Origin: Corallococcus sp.
GTDB taxonomy: Bacteria; Bacillota; Clostridia; Christensenellales; CAG-314
Direction: 5' to 3'
Length of the DNA stretch: 64,000 bases
NCBI GenBank assembly: GCA_023663205.1
Contig: JAMPHX010000001.1
Span: forward strand, 7-64,006
Below, in pieces: positions 162-42,236 of this stretch. Below the pieces are notes generated by a model, which was not told the origin of the DNA, did no database searches, and worked only from the letters and a program-made list of their open reading frames with translations. The translations under genes and the position numbers were made by a program. Numbering within the stretch: position 1 is the first letter of the stretch; every line of letters begins with the position of its first letter.

Positions 162-493
162 ATGAAATATTTAGACGGAGTAAGGCTTATTGTAGATAAG
201 CCGGAATATGCAAAGCGCGGATTAAAAAAGGGGGGGCTTGCGGAGCCATTGTGTTGCCCGAAATAAGAAATAATACTTTTGAGGTTGAATTTTTTGATTT
301 GAAAGACGATTTTGCCATAGAAGCATTTGTGGGAGACTTAGAGGTTACGCAAGAGGCGCCCGTTACAGACGAGGAAATATTGGAAGATTTGCCCAAACAC
401 GACCCGCGCTGGTGGTGTAAGGTGGAAAACGGCTACATACTCAACCTAAAAGGCGAACGCAAAAACAAAATACCCTACGACTACAATTCGTAA
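162..493 (+). pseudogene. DUF4926-like small protein, reading frame split at an A6G7 tract
   Basis: ATG at 162 has GGAGG 9 nt upstream and gives MKYLDGVRLIVDKPEYAKRGLKKGG..., stopping at 264-266. The listed ORF 251..493 is in another frame that is open from 200. One extra G in the run at 230-236 fuses them to ...GLKKGGACGAIVLPEIRNNTFEVEFFD.... From memory this resembles the DUF4926 pattern (L..PE.GLKKGD.GTIV...YEVEF). Confidence 0.5.
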
Positions 494-526: not shown

Positions 527-570
527 AAAGACCGCTAAAAACGATGATTTTTATCGGTCTTTAATTTTAT
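527..570 (+). terminator. Rho-independent terminator after the DUF4926-like gene
   Basis: AAAGACCG (527-534) pairs with CGGTCTTT (555-562), with an inner TAAAAA/TTTTTA stem, followed by AATTTTA. Confidence 0.6.
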
Positions 571-633
571 AATATAACACACAATACAATAAATACAAAT
601 TAAATATTTGTTTGCGTGATGTATTGTATAATG

Positions 634-670
634 GTAGTTAGCAGTAGTTAAGTGCAGTTAAACGTACTTG
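634..670. repeat. Iteron-like array 1: GTAGTTA-type heptamers at exact 10-bp spacing
   Basis: GTAGTTA at 634, GTAGTTA at 644, GCAGTTA at 654 and a degenerate GTACTTG at 664. TTGCGTGAT lies upstream at 612-620. Confidence 0.65.
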
Positions 671-756
671 GATTTGGTTGTGTATTTTATAATAACGTAC
701 ACGAATATAATTTTTCAAAAACACTTAGTTTATTGCGTGATACGATGTAATAGCGA

Positions 757-803
757 GCAGTTAACAGTAATTAAACGTAGTTAAATTTAGTCAATTGTAG
801 TTA
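757..803. repeat. Iteron-like array 2: five heptamers at exact 10-bp spacing
   Basis: GCAGTTA at 757, GTAATTA at 767, GTAGTTA at 777, TTAGTCA at 787 and GTAGTTA at 797. A second TTGCGTGAT lies upstream at 733-741. Together with array 1 this forms an imperfect direct repeat offset by about 122 bp. Confidence 0.65.
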
Positions 804-877
804 CGTATGCTATAATACTTGATATTTTCTCCAATTATTATAATTAACTGTACACATTGCTAAATGAGGGAATTATA

Positions 878-1635
878 ATGTTTGTTCAAATAATTAAACT
901 GAAAAAGTTAAATGACAAAAATGAAATTAACGAAGACCGTTGAAAAATAACGGGCAGATTTTATCCGAACCAATTACTGTAAAGAACAAACGGATTTACG
1001 AAATATATGTTGCTGTGCCCAAATGCGATTCATTGGCTTCTTGCTATGACAGCGTTTATGTAAAATGCGATAGAGATTTACTCGAAAAATATTTTGAGAT
1101 AAATGTACGTCAGATAGGCATAAATGCAGACAGTCAAGAGTATTGTTCTTGCAAAAAAAGAACCGCTATGGAAATGCAAACTTTTGCTAACGATATCGAC
1201 AGCGTTTTTACGTGCTGCCATTGCGGGAAGCCCGTAGCGTTGTATGAATTGCCGCACCTTGACAAGCAAGAAGACCATTGGGCTATAGTAAATTGGCAAA
1301 ACACTTACGGCGCGACGGATACGTTATGGCTTGATAGTTTAAGCGATAGATTTACGGGTAATCAACTCGTGAATATAAGTTCCACATTAAATTAATTGGG
1401 TAGGGAGATTGCAAAAGAAATCGGTCATAGAGCAAATCTTAAATGCTACTATAATGTATTTGACGACCTAACGCATAAAATAAAATTTACAAAAATCAAA
1501 GACAAGACAGTAAGAATTTGCCCCTCTTGCGGGAATGCAATGCAATATATAAAATTTTGCGATGGGTATGAAAGATATATTTGCAGCGATTGTATGCTTT
1601 CAAGCGATTTACCCAAAGAAGATTCGCTTAAATAG
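878..1635 (+). pseudogene. Zn-ribbon protein gene interrupted by an in-frame TAA (possibly DUF2310-like; family recalled from memory)
   Basis: ORFs 940..1395 and 1396..1635 are in the same frame, separated only by TAA at 1393-1395. Cys clusters are present in both halves (CSC, CCHC; CPSC...C...CSDC). ATG 878 has a GAGGG SD and encodes a 21-codon ORF whose TGA (941-943) overlaps the TTG at 940, which implies either a frameshift or TTGA coupling. Confidence 0.5.
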
Positions 1636-3085: not shown

Positions 3086-6000
3086 ATGAAACTGAAAATA
3101 TTGTGCGGCTTGCTTGCTGTAATACTAAGTTCTGCCTGCGTTGTATTTGTTATGGATAACGACGACGGCGGTACGGTGGTTCCGCCTCCTGTCGGCGCAA
3201 ATTTGATAAGCACCAAATACGACCGTCCTTCCGACGGCAACCCCTCGGCATATTCCGCAAAAGAAAACCTCTATATAGCGCACGGCGAATTACTGCGCAG
3301 CGGCGGATTTTCCGCAAAATCGTACGGCACAACCACAACTCTCGGCGTTTCGCAGCCGATATCTGCGGACAGAGTTGTATTGGACGGGGCGGTATTTAAG
3401 CAATCTGTAAGTTATTCCAGTTTGGTCAAGATGGCTGAACAACGTTACACAAACGGCAGCGATTACATTTTACGCGAAAGTCTGTCGGTAAATGCGCTTG
3501 ACAATGTACAATGGAAAGATACGGCAATGCCCCTTTCCCAAAAAGCGTATATGGACAGATACGGGCATACAAGCAGCGAACTTACAGGTTATATACTAAA
3601 CGACGAAACAATAGTGCAAGACGAACTTGTGTCGGTTGATGACGGCGTATACACTTTCAGATACGTTTTGGACGAAACGGTTGCTCCGTACTATATGCTG
3701 TACGAAATGCGCACTTCGGCGGGCGTCAGCAAACTTCCCGTATTTTACAGCGCGGAATTGACGCTCAAAATGGACAGCAACTGGACGGTAATAAGTCTTG
3801 ATACAAAGGCATCGTACAAAGTAGCGCTGATAGGGGGAGTCACGTGCAACGAACAGATGACGGAAACTTTCCACGATATAGGCAAAGTAACCCAACTTCC
3901 CGAAACGGAATTTTTCAGTCAATACTTCGGCGCCGCAACGGTAGACCCTCTGCCTCAGGAAGTAAATGCAACAACGGTATTGATGAATATTTTCCAACCT
4001 TACCTGTCTGCCGACGCCAAACCGCTTGACGTTGCGTTGACTATCGGCAGTTCCGATAGTTGGAAACCTATTGCAAGCGGCTATATCAGTGCGGAAATAG
4101 ATATGCAAAATCTTGCAAACACCCGCGCGGCGGCATCAATTGCCGGTATCGATTTGGTATACGACGGCGGCAAGGTCAATTTGAGTTACAACGACTTCAA
4201 AGCAAGCGTATCGGTAAACGATGCGGTGCAAAAGATTGGCGGCTTGCTTGCCCAATTCGGCACGGACGCTTTGTTGGAGTTGGATACCGACAAACTGCTT
4301 GCGTCCATAACATTTGACCTGACGGACGATTACTGTCAGGTAGACATTCCCCTTTCAATCGGCGGTGTGGATTTGTATGCGCAGATTACCGCGGACATAA
4401 ACGACGGTGTTTATACGTTTACGGGGGCTACGGCGCGGATAGGAAAGTATACGCTAACGCTCACTCCCGTGCAAAATTGGGATGTTCCGCAACTTGACGG
4501 CGAGTACCCCGACGCGCTGGGATTGCTCGGTATTTTGGACGGTACGGCGATTGCCTTTACGGGAGACGTCAACGGTACTCAACTGCTTGCGCAGTACGAT
4601 TTGCTGCGCGGCGCGATGGATTTGCACCTCGGCGAACTGTCCGCCTACTGCCGCGACGGCGTAATTTACGCAAATTACGGCAATGCGGCGGTAAAACTCG
4701 GAATAGAAGATATCCCGCGTTTGATTGAAAAACTGACTCCGCTATTGGGCGAAACTCAGTTGCCGCAAATCAATACAAATTCGATACTCGGCAATCTGTC
4801 GTTCGAATCTGACCAAAACGACGCGAATTTGCAGGTTGAAATCGCGGGTTTTGCGGTAAGGGCAGACTTTACCGTTATGGACGGAAGTTGGATACTTTCA
4901 AAAATAAGTTGCAATTACGACGGAATCGAGGCAGAACTTTTGCCGCAGTTCGCTTTGCAATTTGAAGACATAGATACGTCATCCTATACGGACGTTGCAG
5001 AAGTTGCGGATGAGTTTTGGGAACCGGTAATGCAGATTGTACAATCTCAAAACCGCAGTGTAAAGATAGGCGCCGCTTTTGAAACGGACGGCGACGTTTA
5101 TTACCTTGACGGGCAGGTTTTGGCGGACGGCAATAACAACGTAAACGCCTTGCTCGATTTGTATCACGACGGTTCGCTTCTTTTGAAGGGCAACATCTGC
5201 AAATACGGCAACACGCTGTATCTCGATATCAACGGCGTAAAAACCTGTTTGACGCTTGAACCGAGCAGCCGAAGCAATTTGACGTTTGCAAACACATTGA
5301 GCGGATTGTACGGATATCATCCCTGTTTGGACTTGGTACTCGATGCGGTAGTTGAGGTTATCGGAGCGTTTGAGGGGGATATAAATTACATCGGTTTGCT
5401 CAAATCGCTGACTTTCAGATACGGAGAGATTGGCGTAGAAGTAAACGGAGAGCAACTCAATTTGCCAGATTTTTCCGTAGGAGTTTCTACTCGGGAAGAA
5501 GCGTTGCTGCTTACGCTCGGCAAATTTACGTTGGGCAAGTTTACCTTGACGGAACTGACGGCGGAAGTAGTGTCTGTCGACCAAACGGTAACGGTTCCCG
5601 CGGACGGCTACACGCTCGGACTGCGCGTGGAAATCGATAAGGAAAACATACTTCACGCAAGCATAGACATAATAAACAACGTGTACCGTTTCCGTATGGG
5701 AGAGTTGTTTGCCGAGTATTCTTCCGATACGCTGTACATCAAATACGGCGATACGTTTATACGCGGCGACATCAACAAAATAAAGGAAATAATAGCGGAA
5801 ATCAAAAATCTTGCGGACAACAACACGCTGTTTGCTTCCTCTGCCGAAAGCGACGGCGGATTGCTTGACAATCTGCTCAAAGGCAGTTTTGACGTCAAAA
5901 CAATTACGCAATCGATTACGCTTAGTTACGACGATGCGCTAAGTCGCGCGTACTTAAAGGCAAACGTATTGGGATTGAATGTCACAGCCGCGGTTATTAC

Positions 6001-7693
6001 GGGCGACAATCCGCAAATAGAAGTTACGGTTCCCGTTACGTTTATCGACCGCACGCTCAAAGTCACTGCCGAGCAGGTCGACGACGACTTTTACGCGTTT
6101 GCGCCGTCGGAAAACTACATTTCGATAGAAACCGTCTTTGACGAATACTTCCCCGTACTGGAAAAAGCCGTCACCACAAACAGTTGGCACTTCGATTTGT
6201 CCGCGGATATTATTACGCAAGACGTTTCGTACAAATTGAAAAATTCTTCGGTAGAACTCATTTACCGTTCAAGCGGAGACTTTGAACTTGCCGCAAACAT
6301 TACGGTTATGCAAAAGACCGACAAACAAACCGAGTATTCGCAGATGATGAGTTTGGCGGTAAGTTACGTGGACGGCAGAGTATTTGTAGATTACAACGGA
6401 CTCAAACTGTCGGTTGCGTGGTCCGCAATAGAAAACTGCGTCGGCTTGGTGCCCGATTTATTCCGAGCCGTTCCGCAAATAAAAGACGCTTACGACGCGT
6501 ACGTTGCCGCAAGAGAAACAATCAAAGGCAACACGCAAAGCGTCGATTACTCTACGATAATAGAAAAGATGACATATATAAACGGCGTAGTCAACCTTGT
6601 GCTAAACGGCAACCTGTTCCTTTCGGAGTTGGGGTCAATAGACCTTACAATAGGCAAAACGTCTGATACGCTGTCGCTGAACGTCAAAGATTTTGTTTAT
6701 ACTTCAACCGACGACGACGGCAACAAAAACTCCCTAAAAGTAAACTTTGACGTAAGCGTGCTGCCGCAAACTCAGCAGGCAGGCAAAGCAGCGATAGGCT
6801 CTCCCGACAAGGCGGATTATATCGACCTCGATAGCATTTATCAATTGCTGTCGGCGTTTATTGCCACCGCCGACGACGGAACGTATTTGCTCAAAGGTAC
6901 GGTTCCCGTGCATTTGGTTGCGATAGGGTTTATCGAGATAGATTTGACTCTCGGTGTAGAAGTGCGCGTCGACGTGGAAAAGATTGACGGCAAAGACGTG
7001 CCTTTTGTAACATTCAAACTGTCAAGAGGCAAACTCGACGGTATAAAGAAAGCGGCATTTGCCGACGTCGGCGGCGACGGATATATATATTACAACGGTC
7101 TTGACAAAACTGTTACATTTACCCGAAACTCGTACCGAGAGTATACTTGGTGTACCAAAAACAATACCTATGATTGCAGTGAAAAGTATCACTTGTTCAA
7201 TCACAACACAACATTCTGTCACGAAAAGCACACTAAACTTAACACGGAAGTTTGGGGCGTTCCCGAGTATTCCGAAACTGTCGCTGCGGCGGATTTCGGC
7301 GGCAAAGCAATGGACGGCATATTCAAACTTATCAATTTCAGCGACTTTATCGACGGTAAGATAAAGGAAGCCATTGCAAACAGCAAACACGATTTCGGCG
7401 TGGAGGAATTGATAAAAGATTACCGCTACGTCGATTGCGCAAACCTTAACGACCCGAAACGCACGGGAGAGTTTTTCGTTGGATTGACGCTGGCTCCCGT
7501 CGACAAAGTGTTGGGCGATGCAAACGTCAACATTGTGCACAACAAGGATTTTACTTTGCAAAAACTGTACGGCGACGTGGTATTGCTCGATGTAACGGGC
7601 GTCAACTGCAAAGGCACATTCGACATAGCGCTCATAGCAAAGCCGCAGGCGGGCTTGGCAAAGAGCAACGTAACGCAACTTGCCGTATGGTAA
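3086..7693 (+). CDS. Giant (1,535 aa) secreted or membrane-anchored protein of unknown function
   Basis: Uninterrupted 4.6-kb ORF with an AGAGGA SD before the ATG. N-terminal hydrophobic signal or anchor MKLKILCGLLAVILSSACVVFV. No catalytic or carrier motif recognised. Cys/His cluster near the C-terminus (WCTKNNTYDCSEKYHLFNHNTTFCHEKH). Confidence 0.85.
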   Translation: MKLKILCGLLAVILSSACVVFVMDNDDGGTVVPPPVGANLISTKYDRPSDGNPSAYSAKENLYIAHGELLRSGGFSAKSYGTTTTLGVSQPISADRVVLDGAVFKQSVSYSSLVKMAEQRYTNGSDYILRESLSVNALDNVQWKDTAMPLSQKAYMDRYGHTSSELTGYILNDETIVQDELVSVDDGVYTFRYVLDETVAPYYMLYEMRTSAGVSKLPVFYSAELTLKMDSNWTVISLDTKASYKVALIGGVTCNEQMTETFHDIGKVTQLPETEFFSQYFGAATVDPLPQEVNATTVLMNIFQPYLSADAKPLDVALTIGSSDSWKPIASGYISAEIDMQNLANTRAAASIAGIDLVYDGGKVNLSYNDFKASVSVNDAVQKIGGLLAQFGTDALLELDTDKLLASITFDLTDDYCQVDIPLSIGGVDLYAQITADINDGVYTFTGATARIGKYTLTLTPVQNWDVPQLDGEYPDALGLLGILDGTAIAFTGDVNGTQLLAQYDLLRGAMDLHLGELSAYCRDGVIYANYGNAAVKLGIEDIPRLIEKLTPLLGETQLPQINTNSILGNLSFESDQNDANLQVEIAGFAVRADFTVMDGSWILSKISCNYDGIEAELLPQFALQFEDIDTSSYTDVAEVADEFWEPVMQIVQSQNRSVKIGAAFETDGDVYYLDGQVLADGNNNVNALLDLYHDGSLLLKGNICKYGNTLYLDINGVKTCLTLEPSSRSNLTFANTLSGLYGYHPCLDLVLDAVVEVIGAFEGDINYIGLLKSLTFRYGEIGVEVNGEQLNLPDFSVGVSTREEALLLTLGKFTLGKFTLTELTAEVVSVDQTVTVPADGYTLGLRVEIDKENILHASIDIINNVYRFRMGELFAEYSSDTLYIKYGDTFIRGDINKIKEIIAEIKNLADNNTLFASSAESDGGLLDNLLKGSFDVKTITQSITLSYDDALSRAYLKANVLGLNVTAAVITGDNPQIEVTVPVTFIDRTLKVTAEQVDDDFYAFAPSENYISIETVFDEYFPVLEKAVTTNSWHFDLSADIITQDVSYKLKNSSVELIYRSSGDFELAANITVMQKTDKQTEYSQMMSLAVSYVDGRVFVDYNGLKLSVAWSAIENCVGLVPDLFRAVPQIKDAYDAYVAARETIKGNTQSVDYSTIIEKMTYINGVVNLVLNGNLFLSELGSIDLTIGKTSDTLSLNVKDFVYTSTDDDGNKNSLKVNFDVSVLPQTQQAGKAAIGSPDKADYIDLDSIYQLLSAFIATADDGTYLLKGTVPVHLVAIGFIEIDLTLGVEVRVDVEKIDGKDVPFVTFKLSRGKLDGIKKAAFADVGGDGYIYYNGLDKTVTFTRNSYREYTWCTKNNTYDCSEKYHLFNHNTTFCHEKHTKLNTEVWGVPEYSETVAAADFGGKAMDGIFKLINFSDFIDGKIKEAIANSKHDFGVEELIKDYRYVDCANLNDPKRTGEFFVGLTLAPVDKVLGDANVNIVHNKDFTLQKLYGDVVLLDVTGVNCKGTFDIALIAKPQAGLAKSNVTQLAVW

Positions 7694-7917: not shown

Positions 7918-10344
7918 ATGGATAAAATTGCGGCAGAACAAAAGTGGAATAAGATTTGGGAAGAAAGCAAAGTGTACAGTTTCGATAAAAACGACGTTGC
8001 AAACAAGCATTACGTGCTTGAGATGTTTTCTTACCCAAGCGGAGCAAAGTTGCACGTCGGTCACTGGTACAATTACGGATTAAGCGACAGTTATGCACGC
8101 TACAAAATAATGAAGGGCGCAAACGTGTTTCAGCCTATGGGTTTTGACGCATTCGGTTTGCCTGCGGAAAACTTTGCAATCAGAAGCGGTATACATCCCG
8201 AGGATAGCACTCTCAAAAATATCGCGATAATGGAAACACAACTCAAAAATATCGGCGCCATGTTCGATTGGGATGCGGAAATAAAAACTTGTATGCCCGA
8301 TTACTACAAGTGGACGCAATGGATATTCTGCCAACTGTACAAACACGGCTTGGCATACAGAAAAAAAGCCCCCGTCAATTGGTGTCCGAGTTGTAACACG
8401 GTTCTTGCAAACGAGCAGGTTGTTGACGGCGCGTGCGAACGCTGCGGACATACGGTAGTGCGCAAGGATTTGACTCAGTGGTTCTTCAAAATCACCGATT
8501 ACGCAGAGGAATTGCTTACGGGTTTGGATAATCTCGATTGGCCGGAAAAAACCAAAGCAATGCAGCGCAATTGGATAGGCAAGTCGCAGGGCGGGGAAAT
8601 ACAATTCGATTTGGCGGACGGCAAAGGCTCGTTCCGAGTGTTTACCACGCGCGCCGACACGCTGTTTGGCTGCACATACGTTGTGCTTGCCCCCGAACAC
8701 GCGCTTGTAGACCAAATAACCACTGCCGCGCAAAAGGCTGCGGTTGAGGAATACAAAGTTGCCGCATCCAAAATTACGGAAATAGACAGACTTTCCACCA
8801 ATAAGGAAAAGACGGGCGTGTTTACAGGCGCTTACGCGCTCAATCCGCTTAGCGGAACAAAGGTGGAAATTTGGATTGGCGATTATGTGCTTGCAAGTTA
8901 CGGCACGGGCGCGGTAATGGGCGTCCCCGCACACGACGCAAGGGATTGGAAGTTTGCGCAAAAGCACGGCATAGCCTGTAAGCGCGCAGTGTGCTCATCT
9001 GCGGGCGTCCAAGACGACTTGCCTTACTGCGAATACGGATATATGTGCAACAGCGGCGAGTTTGACGGAATGTCAACCGAGGAAGGACGCGTCGCGGTAG
9101 TAAACAAATTGGCGCAAATAGGCAAAGGCGAACTCAAAACAAACTACCGTCTGCGCGATTGGCTGGTTTCGCGTCAGCGTTATTGGGGCGCGCCGATACC
9201 TATTATTTACTGTCCGCATTGCGGCGAGGTGTTGGACGAAAACCTGCCCGTACAGTTACCCTACGACGTCGATTTCCGTCCCGACGGCACAAGTCCGCTT
9301 GCAAGACACGACAAATTCGTTCACGACGTCAAGTGCCCGAAGTGCGGAAGCGCGGCAACGAGGGAAGTAGATACATTGGACACTTTTGTGTGCAGCAGTT
9401 GGTATTATCTGCGTTATCCCGACAGTAAAAATTCCGACAAACCATTTGATACCGAGTGGATTGACAAAATGCTCCCCGTAGACAAATACGTCGGCGGCGC
9501 AGAACACGCGTGTATGCATTTGTTATATGCGCGCTTTATTACAAAGGCGCTCCGCGATATGGGTTATTTGCACTTTGACGAACCATTCAAGTCGCTTGTT
9601 CATCAGGGCGTAATTTTGGGACCAGACGGCAACCGTATGAGCAAATCGCACGGCAACGTGGTGAGTCCCGACGATTACGTGGGGGAATACGGCGCGGACG
9701 TGTTCCGTTGTTACTTGGCGTTCGGTTTCCGCTACATAGAGGGCGGACCGTGGTCGGACGACGGTATCAAGGCAATCAACAAGTGGCTCGACCGTGTGGA
9801 AAAATATGTTTTATCTGCTTTCGGCAATTACAAAACAAGCGACAGTTTCGGCGCGGAGGAACGCCGATTGGATATGGTGCGCAACAATACGATAAAGTGC
9901 GTCGATAACGATTACAACGAGTTTTCCTTCAACACAGCAGTTGCGCGTATGATGGAATTGGTCAATGCTATGGTACGTTACGACGCTTTGCCCGTCAAGA
10001 ACGCCAAACTGTACCAAGATACAGCCAAAGATTTGCTCAAACTGCTTGCGCCTCTTGCGCCGCATATATGCGAAGAATTGTGGCAGCAGATAGGTTGCGA
10101 GTATTCGGTAGTGCGTCAAAGTTTCCCCGTATACAACGAATCTGCGCTCAAACCCGCCGATGTGGAAATGCTTGTTCAGATAAACAGCAAACCGTGCGTA
10201 AGACTTACGCTCGATAGCGACCTTTCGGAAGATATGATAAAACAAGCGGCGCTTGCCGACAAAACGGTACAAAGCAAACTTAACGGCGCTGAAGCAAAAA
10301 AGATAATAGTTATCAAAGGCAGACTTGTAAATATCATTATTTGA
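7918..10344 (+). CDS. leuS: Leucyl-tRNA synthetase
   Basis: HIGH-type motif (HVGHWYNY), KMSKS-type motif (RMSKSHGN) and a CP1/Zn region (CPSC...CERC). Start placed at [14 protein letters not shown], because the ORF-track start at 7894 lies inside the promoter/SD region. Confidence 0.95.
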
Positions 10345-10380
10345 TATTGTACAAATATTTTAATATCGGTTGCATATACA

Positions 10381-10416
10381 AGCGGCGCGTTTTACCCTGC
10401 GGTAAAACGCGCCGCT
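10381..10416 (+). terminator. Strong hairpin downstream of leuS (no U-tract)
   Basis: AGCGGCGCGTTTTA (10381-10394) pairs perfectly with TAAAACGCGCCGCT (10403-10416). It is followed by ATTGAC and an A-run rather than a T-run. Confidence 0.4.
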
Positions 10417-10886
10417 ATTGACAAAAAAAAAGAAAGTAAAATCCGCTGCAACACCTGAAAAATTTGCAAAAAGGCGTCAAGAGCAGCAGCGCAGCAGATA
10501 TTACAATCACTCGCCCCGCCTTCTTGTTTGTGTGTAACTTCCGAGGTAAATCGGGTGCGCGCAGACGTCGCCAATGACAGGTAAACTTTGGTTATTTTAA
10601 GCAATCGGCGATTATTTAACAAACTTCCTTTTCGGCGCGCTTGTCAACATAAAAACCGAAAACGCTGCCGTTATTTTCCGTCGCGCGCTTGTGTAACAAA
10701 GGTCCCAAAGCGTGCCGCAGTGAGGCGAAGCCCAAACAGTTCGCTTCACTGACGTCCTTTTGCGGAAGTGGTTGACGTGACGTTGTTTTTTTTATATGTT
10801 TTACTATTATATGTTTGGTTGTATTTGCAAGAAATTTTTGTTGCGGCACAACTAATATTGAGCAACAAATCGAAATATATTGAAAG

Positions 10887-11090
10887 TCAATTGTCGTCGC
10901 GCAAGCCTAATATATAATCGGTGGAAACGGAATAGATTTTGGACAAAGAAATCAAAAATTCTATCGGCAAATCACGTACGCCGTTTTCGTATTGAGAGTA
11001 TGTGTTTTGCTTAACCATAAGTAACTCGGCAATTTTCTTTTGACTGTAACCGAATTCCACGCGCAATTCTCGTAATCTTTCTATTTTCAA
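10887..11090 (-). CDS. XRE-family helix-turn-helix transcriptional regulator
   Basis: 67 aa. YSQKKIAELLMVKQNTYSQYENGVRDLPIEFLISLSKIYSVSTDYILG is a typical HTH_3/Cro-C1 fold pattern. Confidence 0.8.
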   Translation of the reverse strand: MKIERLRELRVEFGYSQKKIAELLMVKQNTYSQYENGVRDLPIEFLISLSKIYSVSTDYILGLRDDN

Positions 11091-11144
11091 CGCTATTCAC
11101 CTGCAAAAAGTTTTATTTTATTATAAATATCGCATATTGAGAAG

Positions 11145-11173
11145 TTGACTTGTATCTCATTTTGTGATATCAT
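11145..11173 (+). promoter_or_regulatory. Candidate promoter divergent from the XRE gene
   Basis: TTGACT (11145-11150), 17-nt spacer, TATCAT (11168-11173). Confidence 0.45.
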
Positions 11174-11351
11174 TGCATAGTAATAAGCGGATTATGCATT
11201 CATTCGCTGTAAAAATCGAATAAAAACTGATATTTTTTGTTAAATAATCAAATCAAAGCAAAAGAGTATTTGGCATTATCGGTTAAACCCGACAGTCAGA
11301 CAAAACTTTTGAGGGAACATTTATTGCAATACTTTCCGTTTGAATCTAAGC

Positions 11352-11360
11352 GGGGGGGGG
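11352..11360. repeat. G9 homopolymer in the leader of the membrane-protein gene
   Basis: Nine consecutive G read directly (cGGGGGGGGGt). Confidence 0.9.
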
Positions 11361-11540
11361 TGATACGAGTAAACAGAGTACCTCTTTGTCAAAATGCAAA
11401 TTTCAATAAAACGATTGATATTTATGTATTTCATTCGAAGTTCTGCTCGGCAATTGAATTATCATACAAGTAATATTCGGTAAAACTGAAATTGCGCTTT
11501 TGCAGACTGCAAAAGTCAATATAAACATTGGAGGTAACTT

Positions 11541-15530: not shown

Positions 15531-16424
15531 TTACAAACCATTCAAATCTGTCTGTATCATTCGCTGCAACTCGCGCGAGGCGGAAGACTGCGTGTGGCGC
15601 GGGTCGGATATCATACACACAAACCGCGGAGGCAATTTCTCCGCAAAGTTCATTTCAAATACTTCGCCGCGCTTAAGCGCTTCGGCAACTATTCCTTCGG
15701 GGACAAGCGACAGTCCGCGGTTGTGCTTTACCATAGGAACAATCAAGTCCACGCCGTCTACTTCCACGTCGGGGGTAATATCCGCATTGTGCGCGGCAAA
15801 TATATCGTCTACAAACTGCCTCAGTTGCATTCCTTTGGCAAGACTGACAAACGGGTAGTTGGAAAGGTCGTCAAAGTGCAGACGTTTGTTTTGCAGTTGC
15901 GTATAGTTGCTGCCTGCAATAAGCACGTCTTTGAATTCGCGTATTTTTGTGACGTGCAGCGGTTTGGGCGCGTTGTAAGGCGTGGTAACGAACGCCAAGT
16001 CGACGGTGCCGTTTTTGAGGTATTCTATGGTATTGTCGGATGAGTTTGTGCGTATCTTAAACCGCACATTTGGGTACTTGCTGCGGAAACCGTCCAAAAA
16101 ATCAAACAAAAAACAGTGCAGTGCGGTAACGGTTGCACCTATGTATACAATGCCGCCGTCAAGGCTGACCGCCTGCGTCAATTCTTCTTCCGCCTTGCGG
16201 AACTGCTCGCACGCTACGGATACGTATGCAAACAGTATTTGTCCTTCGTGTGTAAATTCCACGCCCTTTTTGTTGCGGATAAACAGTCTGCACCCCAGTT
16301 CCGTTTCCATATTTTGTATTACGCGCGTAACGGCAGGTTGACTGGAATACAGTTCGTCTGCTGCGCGCGTTATGTTTTTGTGCTTGCCTACACAGTAAAA
16401 TATTTTGTAGTATTCGTAATTCAT
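15531..16424 (-). CDS. LysR-family transcriptional regulator
   Basis: N-terminal HTH (NITRAADELYSSQPAVTRVIQNMETELGCRLFIR) plus a LysR substrate-binding domain of about 200 aa. Confidence 0.9.
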   Translation of the reverse strand: MNYEYYKIFYCVGKHKNITRAADELYSSQPAVTRVIQNMETELGCRLFIRNKKGVEFTHEGQILFAYVSVACEQFRKAEEELTQAVSLDGGIVYIGATVTALHCFLFDFLDGFRSKYPNVRFKIRTNSSDNTIEYLKNGTVDLAFVTTPYNAPKPLHVTKIREFKDVLIAGSNYTQLQNKRLHFDDLSNYPFVSLAKGMQLRQFVDDIFAAHNADITPDVEVDGVDLIVPMVKHNRGLSLVPEGIVAEALKRGEVFEMNFAEKLPPRFVCMISDPRHTQSSASRELQRMIQTDLNGL

Positions 16425-16503
16425 AGGTTCTCCGCTGTTCTTATTTTTTGATAAAAACGCCTTGTCATAGCAAATTGTTATTTTTACTATGTTATATTAT
16501 TAT

Positions 16504-16537
16504 TTTACATTATAATACTCCCGTTATAAAATGTAAA
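16504..16537. promoter_or_regulatory. Candidate LysR-type binding site in the divergent intergenic region
   Basis: Inverted repeat TTTACATT (16504-16511) / AATGTAAA (16530-16537) enclosing two TTATAA half-sites. Confidence 0.35.
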
Positions 16538-16597
16538 TAGGGATAGCATAATCTTTGGGAATTTGCGTCCATTTTTATCTAAAAGGAGAAAAAATCT

Positions 16598-17779
16598 ATG
16601 AATGTTAAAGAATTATCCTTGCAGAAACACGCCGAATGGAAGGGCAAAATAGAAACGGTTTGCCGTGTAGACGTCGGTAGCCGTGAAGCGCTTTCGCTGG
16701 CTTACACTCCGGGTGTTGCAGAGCCTTGTATGGCAATCAACGCCGATACGGAAAAGAGTTTTGAACTTACACGCCGTTGGAATACTATTCCCGTAATCAC
16801 CGACGGTACGGCTGTATTGGGACTGGGAGATATAGGTCCGGAAGCCGGTATGCCCGTTATGGAAGGCAAGTGCGCCCTGTTCAAGGCTTTCGGAGATGTG
16901 GACGCATACCCCATTTGTCTGAAAACAAAAGACGTAGACGAAATAATAAATACCGTAAAAGTTATGTCGGGTAGTTTCGGGGGTATCAATTTGGAAGATA
17001 TTTCCGCACCGAGATGTTTTGAAATAGAAACGCGCCTCAAAGAGGAATTGGATATACCCGTATTCCACGACGACCAACACGGGACGGCAATAGTAACTAC
17101 ATCTGCGCTTATCAACGCGCTTAAACTTGTAGACAAAAAAATTGACGAAATAAAGGTAGTAATAAACGGCGCGGGTGCGGCGGGTATTTCTATATGCAAA
17201 TTTTTGATATCGTTCGGCGTCAGGGACGTTACGATGTGCGATAGGTTCGGCATTATATGCGAGGGCGACCCGACGCTAAACAAGCCGCATACGGAAATTT
17301 CCAAAATAACCAACCGAAAAAAGATGACGGGACTGCTGTCCGACGCAATGAAGGGAGCGGACGTATTTGTGGGAGTATCCGCGCCCAACTGCGTCACCAA
17401 AGATATGGTAAGAAGCATGGCGGATAAGGCAATAGTATTTACCTGTGCCAATCCAGTGCCCGAAATACCCTACGAGGACGCATTGGAAGCAGGCGCAGCG
17501 GTAGTAGGTACGGGTTCCAGCGAACACCCCAACCAAATAAACAACGTGCTTGTATTCCCCGGATTGTTCCGCGGCGCGCTCGACGCCCGTGCAAGTACCG
17601 TAAACGAGGAAATGATGAAGGCGGCGGCGCTGGGCATTGCGTCCTGTGTTTCGGCGGAGGAACTCAGACCCGATTACATCCTTCCCTACGCTTACGACAA
17701 ACGCGCGCATAAAATGGTTGCCGAAAATGTCAAGCAGGCGGCAATAGAGTCGGGCGTATCCAAGTTGTATTCCAAGTAG
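16598..17779 (+). CDS. NAD(P)-dependent malic enzyme (short form, no PTA domain)
   Basis: AAGGAG SD. Motifs YTPGVA, VITDGTAVLGLGDIG, VFHDDQHGTA and the NAD-binding GAGAAG. Confidence 0.9.
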   Translation: MNVKELSLQKHAEWKGKIETVCRVDVGSREALSLAYTPGVAEPCMAINADTEKSFELTRRWNTIPVITDGTAVLGLGDIGPEAGMPVMEGKCALFKAFGDVDAYPICLKTKDVDEIINTVKVMSGSFGGINLEDISAPRCFEIETRLKEELDIPVFHDDQHGTAIVTTSALINALKLVDKKIDEIKVVINGAGAAGISICKFLISFGVRDVTMCDRFGIICEGDPTLNKPHTEISKITNRKKMTGLLSDAMKGADVFVGVSAPNCVTKDMVRSMADKAIVFTCANPVPEIPYEDALEAGAAVVGTGSSEHPNQINNVLVFPGLFRGALDARASTVNEEMMKAAALGIASCVSAEELRPDYILPYAYDKRAHKMVAENVKQAAIESGVSKLYSK

Positions 17780-29211: not shown

Positions 29212-29222
29212 CTACCTACAAT

Positions 29223-29316
29223 CCTATCAAGAGTGTCGGAGAGACGGACTCGGTGAAGACACAGCAACCTTTTAGATTAGGTGCTAAATTCCGCAAAGGT
29301 AAACTTTGGAAGATGG
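29223..29316 (+). promoter_or_regulatory. SAM-I (S-box) riboswitch
   Basis: Conserved S-box strings CTATCAAGAG, GGAGAGAC, CGGTGAAG, CAGCAACC, GGTGCTAAATTCC and GAAGATGGG (P1 closing). Located upstream of metK, as expected. Confidence 0.85.
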
Positions 29317-29341
29317 GCGACAATTTAAACGTAAGTGTGTC

Positions 29342-29369
29342 GTCCCGTCTTATTGACGGGACTGTTTTT
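29342..29369 (+). terminator. Riboswitch expression-platform terminator
   Basis: GTCCCGTC (29342-29349) pairs with GACGGGAC (29355-29362), followed by TGTTTTT. SD ACGGAGG and ATG 29386 follow. Confidence 0.75.
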
Positions 29370-29385
29370 ATACGGAGGCAGAATT

Positions 29386-30567
29386 ATGAAAGAAAACAAA
29401 CGCAGATTTTTTACTTCGGAAAGCGTAACCGAAGGGCATCCCGACAAAATGTGCGACCAAATAAGCGACGCAATACTCGACGCACTAATCGCTCAGGACC
29501 CAGACGCGCGCGTGGCGTGCGAAACGGTTGTCTGCACGGGCACTGTATTTGTTATGGGGCAAATCAGCACGACGGCAACTGTCGATATACCGGCAATAGT
29601 TCGCAAAACCGTTCGTGACATCGGTTATACGCGCGCCAAGTTCGGATTTGACGCCGACAGTTGCGGAGTGATAATTTCACTTGACAAGCAATCACCCGAT
29701 ATTGCTCTGGGCGTTGACAAATCCGACGAGTACAAAACACGCGGCGAAGTGTTGGACATTTACGGAGCGGGCGACCAAGGCATGATGTTCGGCTATGCCT
29801 GCAACGAAACGCCCGAATATATGCCTATGGCAATTACATTGGCGCAAAAAATTGCCCGACGTCTTGCGTATGTGCGTAAGCAGGGCTTATTGGATTATTT
29901 GCGTCCCGACGGCAAATGCCAAGTTACGGTGGAGTACGACGGCGACAAACCCGTACGCGTAGACACGATTGTACTGTCCACGCAGCACGGAAGCGACGTA
30001 AGCAGCGACGTGATAGCGCGCGATATGATAAATTTTGTCATACGCGAGGCTGTGCCGCTGTCGCTGTTGGACGAGTGCACCAAATACTACATAAATCCCA
30101 CCGGCAGATTTGAAATAGGCGGTCCCGCGGCAGACAGCGGGCTTACGGGAAGAAAAATAATAGTCGATACGTACGGCGGTTACTGCGCGCACGGCGGCGG
30201 CGCGTTTTCGGGCAAGGACCCTACAAAGGTGGACAGAAGCGCAACGTATTTTGCGCGTTACATCTGCAAAAACTTGGTTGCGGCAGGGTTGTGCGACAAG
30301 GTTCAACTGCAAGTTTCCTATGCCATAGGCAGGTCAAAACCGGTATCGGCGGACGTAAATTCTTTTGGAACGGGCAAGTTGTCCGACAAGGTTCTTTCCG
30401 ACATCGTAACGCAGGAATTCGATATGCGTCCGCGTGCAATAATAGAGCAATTGGATTTGCAAAAGCCCATTTACTTGCAGACGGCAAGTTACGGACATTT
30501 CGGCAGGGAAGGCTTTTCTTGGGAAAAGTTGGATAAGGTCGACGCTCTCAAAAAGTATTTGTCGTAA
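29386..30567 (+). CDS. metK: S-adenosylmethionine synthetase
   Basis: [25 protein letters not shown] and [16 protein letters not shown]. Start taken at MKENKRRFF downstream of the riboswitch. Confidence 0.95.
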
Positions 30568-39262: not shown

Positions 39263-40789
39263 TTACAGCAACGGAGTCAACGCCATTGCAACCATACAAA
39301 AAAAACGCCAAAATTTGTTGAGTTTGCACTTGGTTTGCAGTTCGCAGTGATTCATAAGCAAATCCAAGTCGGCTTTGAGCGTTTTGAGAGCGTTTGTTTT
39401 GTACATCCACACTCCGCATTCGTAGTGGTGTATCAAACTGCGATAGTCCATGTTCATTGTGCCTACTATTCCCACGTTGTCATCTGCTATTATGCTTTTG
39501 GCGTGTACAAACCCTTCGGTAAATTCGTATACTTTTACGCCCGCTTCCATAAGAGCGATGTAATTGTACCGCGTAATTTTAAACACCAACTTTTTGTCGG
39601 GAATTTGCGGAGTGATTATCCGTACGTCTACTCCGCGCCTTGCCGCGCGTATTATTGCCGAACGCAGCAGGTCGTCTATTATCAGATACGGCGTTGTAAT
39701 GTACAGGTATCTTTGCGATTGGTTTATTATGTTAAGTATCGCTTCTTCGGCAATGGGGTCGTTGTATATCGGGCGCGGTCCGTCGCCGAAAGGATGTACG
39801 TAACCTTCGTCGGGGTATACGTCAAATGTATCGGGAATATACGGCGCAAAGTCCTCTAACTTGTGCGTTTGCATTGCAAACGATTGCAAAAACATCACCG
39901 TAAAACTTTTTACCGCTTCGCCTTGGAGTTTTACAGCCGAGTCCTTCCAATAGCCGAAGGGGTGTGTTTCGTTTATATATTCGTCGGCAAGGTTCATTCC
40001 GCCTATGTATGCGGTCTTGCCGTCTATTACGGTAACTTTGCGGTGATTGCGGTTGTTATGTACCGCTGTTGCAAGGGGCGTAAACTTGTTGAAACGTACG
40101 CAGTTTATGCCTGCTTTGTTCAATTGCTTGTAGTAGTTGGACGGTATTTTGGGCAGGCAGCCTATATCGTCGTACATTACGCGCACTTCTACGCCTTCCG
40201 AAACCTTGCGTTTGAGAATTTCCAAAACGGAATCCCACATTTTGCCCTGTTCTATTATGAAATATTCAACAAATATAAACTTTTCCGCGCGTTTCAGTTC
40301 GGCAAGCAAATCTTTCCAAAATGTTTCGCCGCTTGGGAAATAATCCGTCTTTGTATCGGTAAACAGCGGAAAATACGACGTGTCAAACAGATATCTGCTT
40401 TGTCCTTTGTATTCGGCAAGCCTGCTTTCCAATGTAACCTGAGATTTTTCGTTTTCTTTGAGTATACGGTGGCTTTCGATAAACAGTTGGGCAAAAAACT
40501 TGTACTGCTTCTTTTTTACTTTGTTTTGCGAAAACAATACGTAAAGCATCGTTCCCGTCATAGGAAACAACAAAATAAGAATCATCCAAGGCGTTTTGCC
40601 GTTTGGCGTCATGTCGCGGTTGATAAGGTGAACCAACGCAACTAATGACAGTATTCTGAAAATAATGTTTACTATTTTTCCGAAATATTCCAATACCGTC
40701 ATAGTCAGCAAAATGAATACCAATTGCAGCAATATAAGCAGTACGAAAATGGTAGTTCGTCCGAATAGCATTTTAAAAAACTTTTTCAT
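39263..40789 (-). CDS. cls: Cardiolipin synthase (PLD superfamily)
   Basis: Two HKD motifs (HRKVTVIDGKTAYIGGMN and HAKSIIADDNVGIVGTMN) and two N-terminal TM helices. Confidence 0.9.
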   Translation of the reverse strand: MKKFFKMLFGRTTIFVLLILLQLVFILLTMTVLEYFGKIVNIIFRILSLVALVHLINRDMTPNGKTPWMILILLFPMTGTMLYVLFSQNKVKKKQYKFFAQLFIESHRILKENEKSQVTLESRLAEYKGQSRYLFDTSYFPLFTDTKTDYFPSGETFWKDLLAELKRAEKFIFVEYFIIEQGKMWDSVLEILKRKVSEGVEVRVMYDDIGCLPKIPSNYYKQLNKAGINCVRFNKFTPLATAVHNNRNHRKVTVIDGKTAYIGGMNLADEYINETHPFGYWKDSAVKLQGEAVKSFTVMFLQSFAMQTHKLEDFAPYIPDTFDVYPDEGYVHPFGDGPRPIYNDPIAEEAILNIINQSQRYLYITTPYLIIDDLLRSAIIRAARRGVDVRIITPQIPDKKLVFKITRYNYIALMEAGVKVYEFTEGFVHAKSIIADDNVGIVGTMNMDYRSLIHHYECGVWMYKTNALKTLKADLDLLMNHCELQTKCKLNKFWRFFCMVAMALTPLL

Positions 40790-41207
40790 CTTTCACCGTA
40801 TGTTTACATTATATAACACGCACGTATACGCTGATTTTAAATTATACATTTATTAGCGTGACGAGTTTCATAAAAGTAGTTAGCAATAGATAGCCGTTGT
40901 TGAACGTACTAATCTTGTGTATTTAATTATAGCATACACGCCCTGTCTTGTCGCGCAAATAATCGATTTTTTGCGTAATACGATGTAATAACAGGCAATG
41001 GGCAGTTATTTGTTTCGATTGCTTGTTGTGATTATTATAACACAGGCACAACGGTTTTACACTTGTTTTGGATGCAATTTCAATTGAAATCGCCGAGTTT
41101 TGCGTGTCGGGAAGGCAAAATGTCGGCAATTTATTAAAATATAATATTTATTACAATTAAACCGCTGAAACATTGACAAAAAAACGTACAACATTTATCA
41201 TTAAAGA

Positions 41208-42236
41208 ATGAACAAAAACGGAGAAATCTTGATATTGGGCGTGGAGAGTTCCTGCGACGAAACGGCGTGTGCGGTAGTTACCGACGGCAGAAAAGTTTTG
41301 TCCGATGTTGTACTGTCGCAAATAGACATTCACGCGCTGTACGGCGGCGTCGTTCCCGAAATAGCGGGACGCAACCACGTCGAAGCAATTTCCGCAGTTG
41401 CAAGTAAGGCGCTTGCCGACGCAAACGTAACTCTTTCGCAAATAGACGCCGTGGCGGTAACCTACGGCGCGGGGCTTGTGGGCGCGCTTCTTGTAGGCGT
41501 TTCCTTTGCCAAGGGGCTTTGCCAAGCAAGCGGATTGCCGCTTATTGCGGTAAATCACATTGAGGGACACATCTGCGCAAACTATCTTACGCACGCCGAT
41601 TTGCAGCCGCCGTATGTTTGCCTTCTTACCAGCGGCGGAAATACCGCGATAGTGCGAGTCGATTCCTACGACAGTTACAAAGTGCTTGCGGCAACCGTCG
41701 ACGACGCCGCGGGCGAAGCCTTCGATAAGATTGCGCGCGTACTCGGTTTGCCGTATCCGGGCGGACCTCGCGTCGATATGCTTGCGCAAAAGGGCAATGC
41801 CGTATATCCGTTTCATACCGTCAAACTCGCAAACGGCAATTTCAGTTACAGCGGGCTCAAAACGGCGGTAATCAATCTTGTACACAACGCTGCCCAGCGC
41901 GGCGAAACAATTTGCAAAGAGGACGTCTGCGCAAGTTTTACGCGAGCGGCAATTGACGGTCTTGTGGACAGGGCGGCGGAAGAACTCAAAAAAAGCGGAC
42001 TTTCTTCGCTTGCAATAGCGGGCGGAGTTGCCGCCAACAGTTACCTTCGCAGTCGTGTGGAACAACTGAGGCAGCATGGAGTAAAGGTATATATGCCGCA
42101 ATTGAAACTTTGCGGCGATAACGCGGCAATGATTGCTTCGCGCGGATACTTTCAATATCTAAACGGCGATTTTGCCGATTTGAGTCTAAATGCAGAGCCG
42201 TCGCTCAAACTGCGCGGAGATAAGCCGCACAGATAG
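41208..42236 (+). CDS. tsaD: tRNA N6-adenosine threonylcarbamoyltransferase
   Basis: GVESSCDETA, NHIEGH and GGVAAN motifs of the Kae1/TsaD family. Confidence 0.9.
   Translation: MNKNGEILILGVESSCDETACAVVTDGRKVLSDVVLSQIDIHALYGGVVPEIAGRNHVEAISAVASKALADANVTLSQIDAVAVTYGAGLVGALLVGVSFAKGLCQASGLPLIAVNHIEGHICANYLTHADLQPPYVCLLTSGGNTAIVRVDSYDSYKVLAATVDDAAGEAFDKIARVLGLPYPGGPRVDMLAQKGNAVYPFHTVKLANGNFSYSGLKTAVINLVHNAAQRGETICKEDVCASFTRAAIDGLVDRAAEELKKSGLSSLAIAGGVAANSYLRSRVEQLRQHGVKVYMPQLKLCGDNAAMIASRGYFQYLNGDFADLSLNAEPSLKLRGDKPHR

Follow-up and report, generated by a model that had tools for sequence, protein, structure and literature searches.

What kind of element is formed by two arrays of short direct repeats, the copies within each array lying one helical turn apart, in an AT-rich gap of a Clostridia contig? 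The question was raised by a first-pass annotation of contig JAMPHX010000001.1 (assembly GCA_023663205.1), which was made from the letters of a 64,000-nucleotide stretch, hereafter the window, covering nearly all of the 64,030-bp contig. That annotation likened the arrays to plasmid or phage iterons and to type II/III partition centromeres, and named cooperative operator arrays as a further option. The arrays lie in 384 bp of non-coding DNA (494-877) with a GC content of 26-28%, compared with ~46% for the contig as a whole. The feature is real, stands up to statistical testing, and is given new limits here, and, judging from its sequence, it is best filed with the phased direct-repeat operator arrays found in promoter DNA.

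The repeat consists of a heptamer with the consensus GTAGTTA followed by three variable bases, and its copies are exactly 10 bp apart in both arrays. Array 1 (634-680, plus strand) comprises GTAGTTA at 634 and 644 and GCAGTTA at 654, followed by the degenerate GTACTTG at 664 and TTGGTTG at 674; in a 10-bp register from 634, it reads GTAGTTAGCA, GTAGTTAAGT, GCAGTTAAAC, GTACTTGGAT, and TTGGTTGTGT. Array 2 (747-803, plus strand) begins with the degenerate GTAATAG at 747 and continues with GCAGTTA at 757, GTAATTA at 767, GTAGTTA at 777, TTAGTCA at 787, and GTAGTTA at 797, reading GTAATAGCGA, GCAGTTAACA, GTAATTAAAC, GTAGTTAAAT, TTAGTCAATT, and GTAGTTACGT in a register from 747. The motif positions given previously were recovered with a regular expression at 634, 644, 654, and 757-797, whereas the one at 664 (GTACTTG) is a 5/7 relic that falls outside the motif as it had been written. 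The exact 10-bp phasing was borne out by both autocorrelation and shuffling. At lag 10, the autocorrelation reaches 0.61 in one array and 0.63 in the other, whereas it averages 0.251 across the window (standard deviation 0.064), and the interval 741-766 gives the top lag-10 signal of the whole 64 kb. A chain of six phased copies, allowing at most one mismatch, appeared in none of 200 dinucleotide shuffles of the region, where the longest chain had five copies and was reached in 9 of the 200. Six of the eight window matches to AGTTA-N5-AGTTA (at most one mismatch) fall in the array region, and a position weight matrix scan found no other tandem heptamer array in the window except a paralogous relic at 40876. 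The phasing and the repeat number are far beyond chance, and AT-richness is not their cause; the phasing exceeds that of every shuffle.

Each array is one part of a larger tandem unit. The element as we delimit it here (copy A, 564-818, plus strand) consists of 2.1 tandem copies of a unit of ~121-123 bp, whose parts are, in order, a near-palindromic box (TGTGTA..TATAAT..TACAC), the nonamer TTGCGTGAT, and an array of four to six heptamers. The nonamer occurs only twice in 64 kb, at 612-620 and 733-741 (both plus strand), and precedes the array by 22 bp in the first unit and 24 bp in the second, measured start to start, just as the first-pass annotation had it. The imperfect direct repeat with an offset of about 122 bp that it described is also there, and it extends from one TATAAT box to the next: BLAST matches 684-817 to 564-694 (66% over 134 bp), a global alignment joins 612-693 to 733-816, and a hidden Markov model (HMM) of the unit matches 565-696 and 684-818. 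The distance from the start of the array to TATAAT is 54 bp in both units (634 to 688 and 757 to 811), and a third TATAAT lies at 568. Box b1 (567-587) reads TTATAATATAACACACAA, with TATAAT at 568-573 and an inverted-repeat partner at 678-695, while box b2 (678-706) is a palindrome, TGTGTA-N-TACACG, around TATAAT (688-693, plus strand) and TATTAT (694-689, minus strand). The left limit of the element is marked by a hairpin 3' of the DUF4926-like gene (527-563, plus strand), with 16-nt arms that are 94% complementary and a 6-nt loop, followed by AATTTTAT, and this hairpin is a probable terminator. A nested imperfect palindrome (584-629; ATACAAT..ACAAAT-TAAAT-ATTTGT..ATTGTAT) overlaps the first nonamer; between copies of the element, only its inner stem is kept (ACAAAT/ATTTGT in copy A, TAAAT/ATTTA in copy B), with one compensatory change.

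A second copy of the element, copy B (40804-41010, plus strand), has the same orientation and lies about 40 kb away, in the spacer that separates the divergent genes cls (39263-40789, minus strand) and tsaD (41208-42236). It is 68% identical to 569-772 (nhmmer E = 1.3e-15, blastn E = 1e-22) and contains box b1, TTAGCGTGAC, the array-1 relic from 40876, box b2 with its palindrome arms kept, and TTGCGTAATACGATGTAATA, after which homology sinks to background past ~41010. The relic (GTAGTTA, ATAGATA, GTTGTTG, and GTACTAA) is decayed, and a 5-bp deletion shifts its phase. Identity between the two copies is 0.72 for b1 and the DNA to its left (566-611), 0.73 for array 1 (634-683), 0.74 for the b2 box (684-706), and 0.83 for the best-conserved block, which the second nonamer opens (nonamer and spacer, 733-756). 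For array 2 (757-806), it is 0.49, compared with 0.44 for the unrelated flank at 819-877, and as this is no better than background, copy B has no array 2. Similarity between units is 0.65 within copy A, 0.48 within copy B, and 0.54-0.56 for cross pairs; since the units of copy A are more alike than those of copy B or the cross pairs, the array consensus has been maintained or homogenized in copy A only. Neither an HMM of the whole element nor one of the single unit detected any more copies in the window or in any fetched locus, so that the search for further copies proposed in the first-pass annotation produced one decayed relative in the window itself and none at related loci. The element is a small unannotated repeat family with two known copies.

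Within the arrays, mismatches fall in the 3-bp spacers (11/24) far more often than in the heptamer core (5/56; Fisher p = 4e-4, or 4e-3 once corrected for register choice), and G is kept at heptamer positions 1 and 4 within DNA of 26% GC. A core that is kept while its spacers are free is expected of recognition sites, and not of recent slippage, which copies the spacers too, or of uniform decay. Our best, if tentative, reading is that the arrays constitute a phased operator or activator array for a direct-repeat-binding protein, set inside duplicated promoter modules, which we consider a real possibility but would stop short of calling probable. The arrays would offer a platform on one face of the helix to a protein that recognizes direct repeats and oligomerizes head to tail, and the types we envisage are winged-helix response regulators, CtsR-like proteins, and BldC/Xis-like proteins. 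The core conservation, the strict 10-bp phase, the fixed register of the -10 box, and the upkeep of the consensus in copy A all fit such a protein platform. The same arrays might instead lack any sequence-specific function and be a degenerate 10-bp slippage minisatellite in an AT-rich spacer under relaxed selection, the spacer having undergone a tandem duplication (121 bp) and, after that, a duplication to a second locus; this is the main rival, which we regard as only slightly less likely than the operator reading. It gains from the call of array 2 by Tandem Repeats Finder as a simple tandem repeat of period 10 (759-803, 4.5 copies), from a hierarchy of 10-bp, 121-bp, and dispersed repeats like that of satellite-like DNA, from the disruption of both neighboring genes, from the ability of the arrays to decay or be missing as in copy B, and from the lack of conservation in the other genomes compared. 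Perfect 10-mer arrays that contain the heptamer are, moreover, common in viral contigs: three phased heptamers gave 25 matches in IMG/VR, nearly all of them perfect microsatellites with constant spacers and none of them homologues of the element, and they occur at about the rate expected of any 10-bp unit. Slippage, however, would have copied the spacers along with the cores, and it does not account for a consensus held in both units of copy A when these are only 65% identical overall. Bacterial genomes are biased toward deletion, and the persistence of ~200 bp of non-coding sequence at both loci, now ~30% diverged, would likewise argue against pure junk.

Both copies carry promoter-like sites, called throughout as consensus matches. 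A leftward sigma-70-like promoter (689-718, minus strand; TTGAAA-18-TATTAT) has a predicted start near 682, which places array 1 at about +3 to +49. A rightward promoter-like site (788-816, plus strand; TAGTCA-17-TGCTATAAT) has an extended -10 (808-816) in box b3 and faces the DUF2310 gene; array 2, at about -76 to -20 relative to this site, overlaps its -35 region. The candidate leftward site of copy B (40926-40954, minus strand; GCGACA-17-TGCTATAAT) lies in box b2 at a position aligned with that of the leftward site in copy A, and it is the sole leftward promoter candidate upstream of cls, while tsaD has its own promoter-like TTGACA-17-TATCAT outside the element. Direct repeats one helical turn apart that lie over the -35 or the start of promoter-like sites, in both arrays, and that combine conserved core positions with free spacers are traits of direct-repeat operators. 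We infer the steps that lead from array to protein binding to promoter control as follows. The protein would coat the arrays cooperatively, and, once bound, it would recruit or block RNA polymerase at the rightward promoter and act as a roadblock for the leftward one. The element itself may have originated as duplicated promoter DNA, probably from the cls promoter region, that was later copied to the second locus, and it may be partly a relic today, because the gene it faces is a pseudogene.

The placement of array 2 directly upstream of an extended -10 would also suit a purely structural role, in which phased AGTTAAA units make a curved, UP-element-like promoter enhancer that needs no dedicated protein. 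The predicted intrinsic curvature of array 2 is at the 99.6-99.9th percentile of the window under two wedge models; such curvature, reported also for parC (PMC2241845), counts in favor of the operator reading as well. Array 1, however, is not predicted to be curved (71st-87th percentile), and the conserved G's at positions 1 and 4 are not needed for curvature, so that we consider an explanation by curvature decidedly unlikely. Elsewhere in the window, the AT-rich divergent spacer at 16440-16597, between a LysR-type regulator gene (15531-16424, minus strand) and the gene for malic enzyme (16598-17779), has both the strongest lag-13 periodicity and the top peak of predicted curvature.

Several known operators resemble these arrays in layout. 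The operator of CtsR, the class III heat-shock repressor of Firmicutes, has the form heptad-NAN-heptad (PMC12634643), and the arrays are like it in joining heptamers through 3 bp at a 10-bp period and in overlapping core promoter elements. CtsR sites, however, have the sequence A/GGTCAAA and usually comprise two heptads upstream of clp genes, whereas here the best register (AGTTAAA/AGTCAAT) agrees at 5/7 positions, there are four to six heptads, and no clp gene is nearby. The site of SaeR, a member of the OmpR/PhoB family, is GTTAAN6GTTAA (PMC5083920); in common with SaeR-type sites, the arrays have repeats at about a helical turn over or in place of the -35 along with a good -10, and GTTAA is found in most units, but the period is 10 rather than 11, the units number five to six instead of two, and neither a regulator gene nor a second target was found in the window. 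BldC assembles head to tail on AT-rich direct repeats, whose number varies, and bends the DNA (PMC5859096), although its repeat is AATTXXXX(C), the protein is actinobacterial, and the analysis identified no homologue. Among other motifs compared on reading the sequence, those of DnaA, Spo0A, PerR/Fur, cre, Rex/CRP, and VirR fail on sequence or spacing, and the LytTR/AgrA 9-mer reaches 7/9 similarity, but its known sites are pairs ~21 bp apart.

Several observations weigh against the operator reading. No candidate binding protein was found, as none of the open reading frames (ORFs) of response-regulator size that were tested against Pfam has a regulator domain. No second tandem motif site exists in 64 kb apart from the relic, and hence there is no sign of a regulon. 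The sites are not conserved at the orthologous genes of other genomes, comprising four DUF2310 loci (L001-L004), one locus of the left-flank gene (L031), and five cls-tsaD loci (L038-L042). Copy B has a decayed array 1 with a changed phase and no array 2, which implies that whatever keeps this copy does not require the arrays. Array 2 is followed by a pseudogene, and the promoters on which the argument draws are matches to consensus. Cooperative operator arrays are, of the options raised in the first-pass annotation, the one that the evidence tentatively favors.

The other options of that annotation, namely, origin iterons or a parC/tubC-like centromere, would require an integrated plasmid, phage, or island with its genes beyond the contig end, which is only 564 bp to the left of copy A. 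As the window takes in practically the entire contig, the look to its left for rep, par, or integrase genes that the first-pass annotation proposed has no sequence to draw on. By gene content, the contig is an ordinary chromosome segment. The window carries leuS, cysK, a LysR regulator gene, the gene for malic enzyme, metK, recD2, secA, and prfB, together with a MATE pump, cls, tsaD, a P-type ATPase, and others; the two genes upstream of the arrays are a chromosomal pair conserved in many Clostridia, and the second copy of the element sits between cls and tsaD. No Rep, Par, TubR/TubZ, transposase, or integrase gene is present in 64 kb, which extends the earlier remark that no Rep, Par, or integrase gene was visible. 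Iterons are typically 17-22 bp long and neighbor a rep gene; an AT-rich unwinding element and, in most cases, a DnaA box go with them. The units here are 10 bp, and no DnaA box was seen on reading the sequence of the region. A BLAST search of the region against 72,556 plasmids and 50,697 phages returned only AT-rich chance matches, with E values of at least 0.03. Against this background, an iteron-type origin or a centromere is very unlikely, although the element does have two phased blocks ~75 bp apart with AT-rich DNA and promoter-like boxes between them, one of its arrays is predicted to be curved, and the GC content of the region is below that of the contig. The layout is, in these respects, reminiscent of parC of plasmid R1, in which two sets of five 11-bp iterons surround a 39-bp promoter core, the DNA is strongly curved, and the repeats double as operators (PMC2241845), and of the split tubC upstream of tubR, in which (on pBtoxis and the Clostridium botulinum prophage c-st) blocks of direct repeats lie within an AT-rich spacer of 130-350 bp that covers a promoter (PMC6009700).

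The resemblance in layout to these centromeres is real. Like R1 parC/ParR, the element has direct repeats spaced by a helical turn and grouped in two blocks, with about five to a block, along with promoter-like sites and predicted curvature; as in tubC/TubR, short direct repeats are grouped in blocks within a repeat-rich, AT-rich promoter spacer, and the two blocks of 10-bp period overlap promoter-like boxes (688-693 and 788-816). However, parC has a single promoter core and lies upstream of parM-parR on a plasmid, whereas here the units are 10 bp, each block has a -10 box of its own, the blocks are 122 bp apart and chromosomal, there are no par genes, and what lies downstream is a DUF2310 pseudogene whose orthologues elsewhere are without arrays. 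Similarly, tubC is always upstream of tubR-tubZ on a plasmid or prophage and has the motifs TTGAC and A/TGAA, from which the repeats here differ, and no tubR or tubZ is present. Membership in the iteron-origin or parC/tubC families is not supported, because the defining rep or parR-parM/tubR-tubZ neighborhood is missing, as is any plasmid or prophage context; the analogy made in the first-pass annotation fails on genomic context.

Phased units do occur in viral sequences, and we note them here as separate observations. In related phage contigs (L017 3228-3275, L026 8113-8160, and L007 ~9046-9113), four to five phased GCAGTTAGAA/GTAGTTA units sit in a non-coding region of ~600 bp that is dense in other repeats of the AAAGTGGGCA type, beside ORFs of 185, 108, and 252 amino acids (aa), and this repeat-rich region looks like an origin or regulatory region. 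These phage arrays were rejected as homologues of the element, as only the array matches the element profile (E ~ 0.006). Other viral contigs carry perfect 10-bp microsatellites that contain GTAGTTA (L021 1-170, L022 1-190, L019 ~8060-8120, and L030 390-455), with 6 to more than 15 identical units and in some cases at contig ends. The conserved 20-mer TTGCGTRATACGATGTAATA had no match in IMG/VR, and a pattern combining the nonamer and the array had a single match in Joint Genome Institute (JGI) metagenomes, which lies inside a cysD coding sequence and is due to chance.

The comparison with relatives, the nearest of which share only 54-81% protein identity, indicates how the two copies may have come to be where they are. 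At the four DUF2310 loci from GTDB (64-71% identity), the upstream regions are short, and both the element and arrays are absent. In the closest relative of the left-flank gene (L031; 81% amino acid and 75% nucleotide identity), similarity stops exactly at the stop codon of that gene, and the DNA downstream is unrelated and lacks the element. The divergent cls-tsaD arrangement, followed by a P-type ATPase gene, is kept in relatives with 54-55% identical Cls, but the spacer (40790-41207) is 418 bp here compared with 125-195 bp in four of the five related loci (L039-L042), an excess that matches copy B. In the fifth (L038), the spacer is ~1.08 kb and includes an extra 146-aa gene. None of the five has any trace of the element. 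Both copies look like lineage-specific gains of ~200-250 bp.

Gains of this kind bring to mind a non-autonomous mobile or dispersed repeat of ~200-250 bp, similar to miniature inverted-repeat transposable elements (MITEs) or to BOX or Correia elements, in which the heptamers would be transposase or recombinase sites or else arm-type or Xis-type sites. Two copies are dispersed in the same orientation at unrelated intergenic sites (E = 1e-15 to 1e-22), the excess of the cls-tsaD spacer over those of L039-L042 fits an insertion of that size, just short of copy A, synteny with the left gene's closest relative breaks off, and copy A lies so near the contig end that it recalls the frequent breaking of assemblies at repeats. 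Despite these points, we consider a mobile element unlikely. No terminal inverted repeats or target-site duplication can be defined, and the tandem units explain the similarity of the ends; the inverted repeat 567-584/678-695 is internal to the tandem structure, and the boundaries of the element are fuzzy. The 64 kb contain no transposase or integrase gene, and the arrays share one orientation, which the two ends of a transposon do not. With only two copies that are 68% identical, the element would be old and not recently active. BOX, Correia, and RUP elements are short AT-rich intergenic elements found at several sites, with internal tandem modules and promoter-like boxes, but 10-bp phased heptamers are no feature of these families, which differ further from the present element in that only two copies of it are known and no terminal inverted repeats or target duplications were found.

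Could the repeats act in RNA rather than in DNA? A leader or small RNA with UAGUUA/UAACUAC repeats might titrate an RNA-binding protein, the leftward transcript being the 5' untranslated region of cls in copy B and an RNA of ~155 nt ending at the 527-563 hairpin in copy A. The leftward promoter-like sites are aligned in both copies, and the hairpin could terminate a leftward transcript. However, the region has no match in Rfam, and its fold z-score is +0.56 on the plus strand and -2.57 on the minus strand, the latter value stemming from the hairpin of the terminator together with a single local inverted repeat. Folding copies A and B jointly gives weak consensus structures (-4 to -17 kcal/mol), the copy B leader has a z-score of -0.81, and the motif repeats are lost in copy B. 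The region is not a known or evidently structured RNA, and we regard a role of the repeats at the RNA level as highly improbable. The possibility, raised in the first-pass annotation, that the region falls in a known non-coding RNA or repeat family was half right, in that it belongs to a repeat family, albeit an unannotated one with two copies. The sole Rfam family that reaches its gathering score in the window is RF00162, an ordinary SAM-I riboswitch (73 bits; 29221-29319, plus strand) upstream of metK (29335-30567).

A broader interpretation, which would go well beyond the operator reading and which we consider rather improbable, is that the element belongs to an undescribed family of chromosomal intergenic modules of uncultured Clostridia, in which the arrays would load a head-to-tail DNA-polymerizing protein and promoter control (of cls and DUF2310) would be coupled to DNA bending or organization, making it a chromosomal counterpart of the plasmid centromere-operators. 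Should the heptamers be genuine binding sites, they would define a new recognition motif (GTAGTTA repeated every 10 bp, as many as six times) and a promoter architecture from a little-sampled lineage of gut Clostridia, and copies A and B would be a natural experiment in the upkeep versus the loss of an array. If they are instead a decaying minisatellite, they are a caution against calling iterons or centromeres from helical phasing and two-block symmetry alone, before genomic context and paralogues have been checked. The practical value is modest in either case: this is an uncultured organism, with a pseudogene downstream of the arrays and no known partner protein.

Both genes that flank the arrays are disrupted. 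The DUF2310 Zn-ribbon pseudogene (878-1635, plus strand) has an in-frame TAA at 1393-1395, and its N-terminal ~29 codons are out of frame (878-940); its orthologues are 256-257 aa long, and residues 29-256 align across the in-frame stop. On the left, the DUF4926-like gene (162-493, plus strand) is frameshifted in a run of seven G's (G7; 230-237). When repaired, it encodes 110 aa, and hundreds of intact homologues of 108-111 aa are found in Clostridia in chromosomal settings. The frameshift could reflect a sequencing error, pseudogene status, or a slippery run. Another long run of G's, at ~11353-11361, is in non-coding DNA.

Some other observations on the window are worth recording. The proteins of this metagenome-assembled genome carry the NCBI label "Corallococcus sp." (Myxococcota), which is probably wrong, because the GC content is ~46% and the closest relatives of several proteins are Clostridia/Christensenellales-like. 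At 3086-7693, a protein of 1,535 aa with a signal-peptide-like N-terminus is encoded, with no Pfam match and no exact copy on record. The 1.2 kb that follow leuS (10345-11540) have a GC content of 38% and no ORF of at least 150 aa, and within them, the minus strand at ~10915-11100 appears, on reading, to encode a short Xre-type helix-turn-helix protein.

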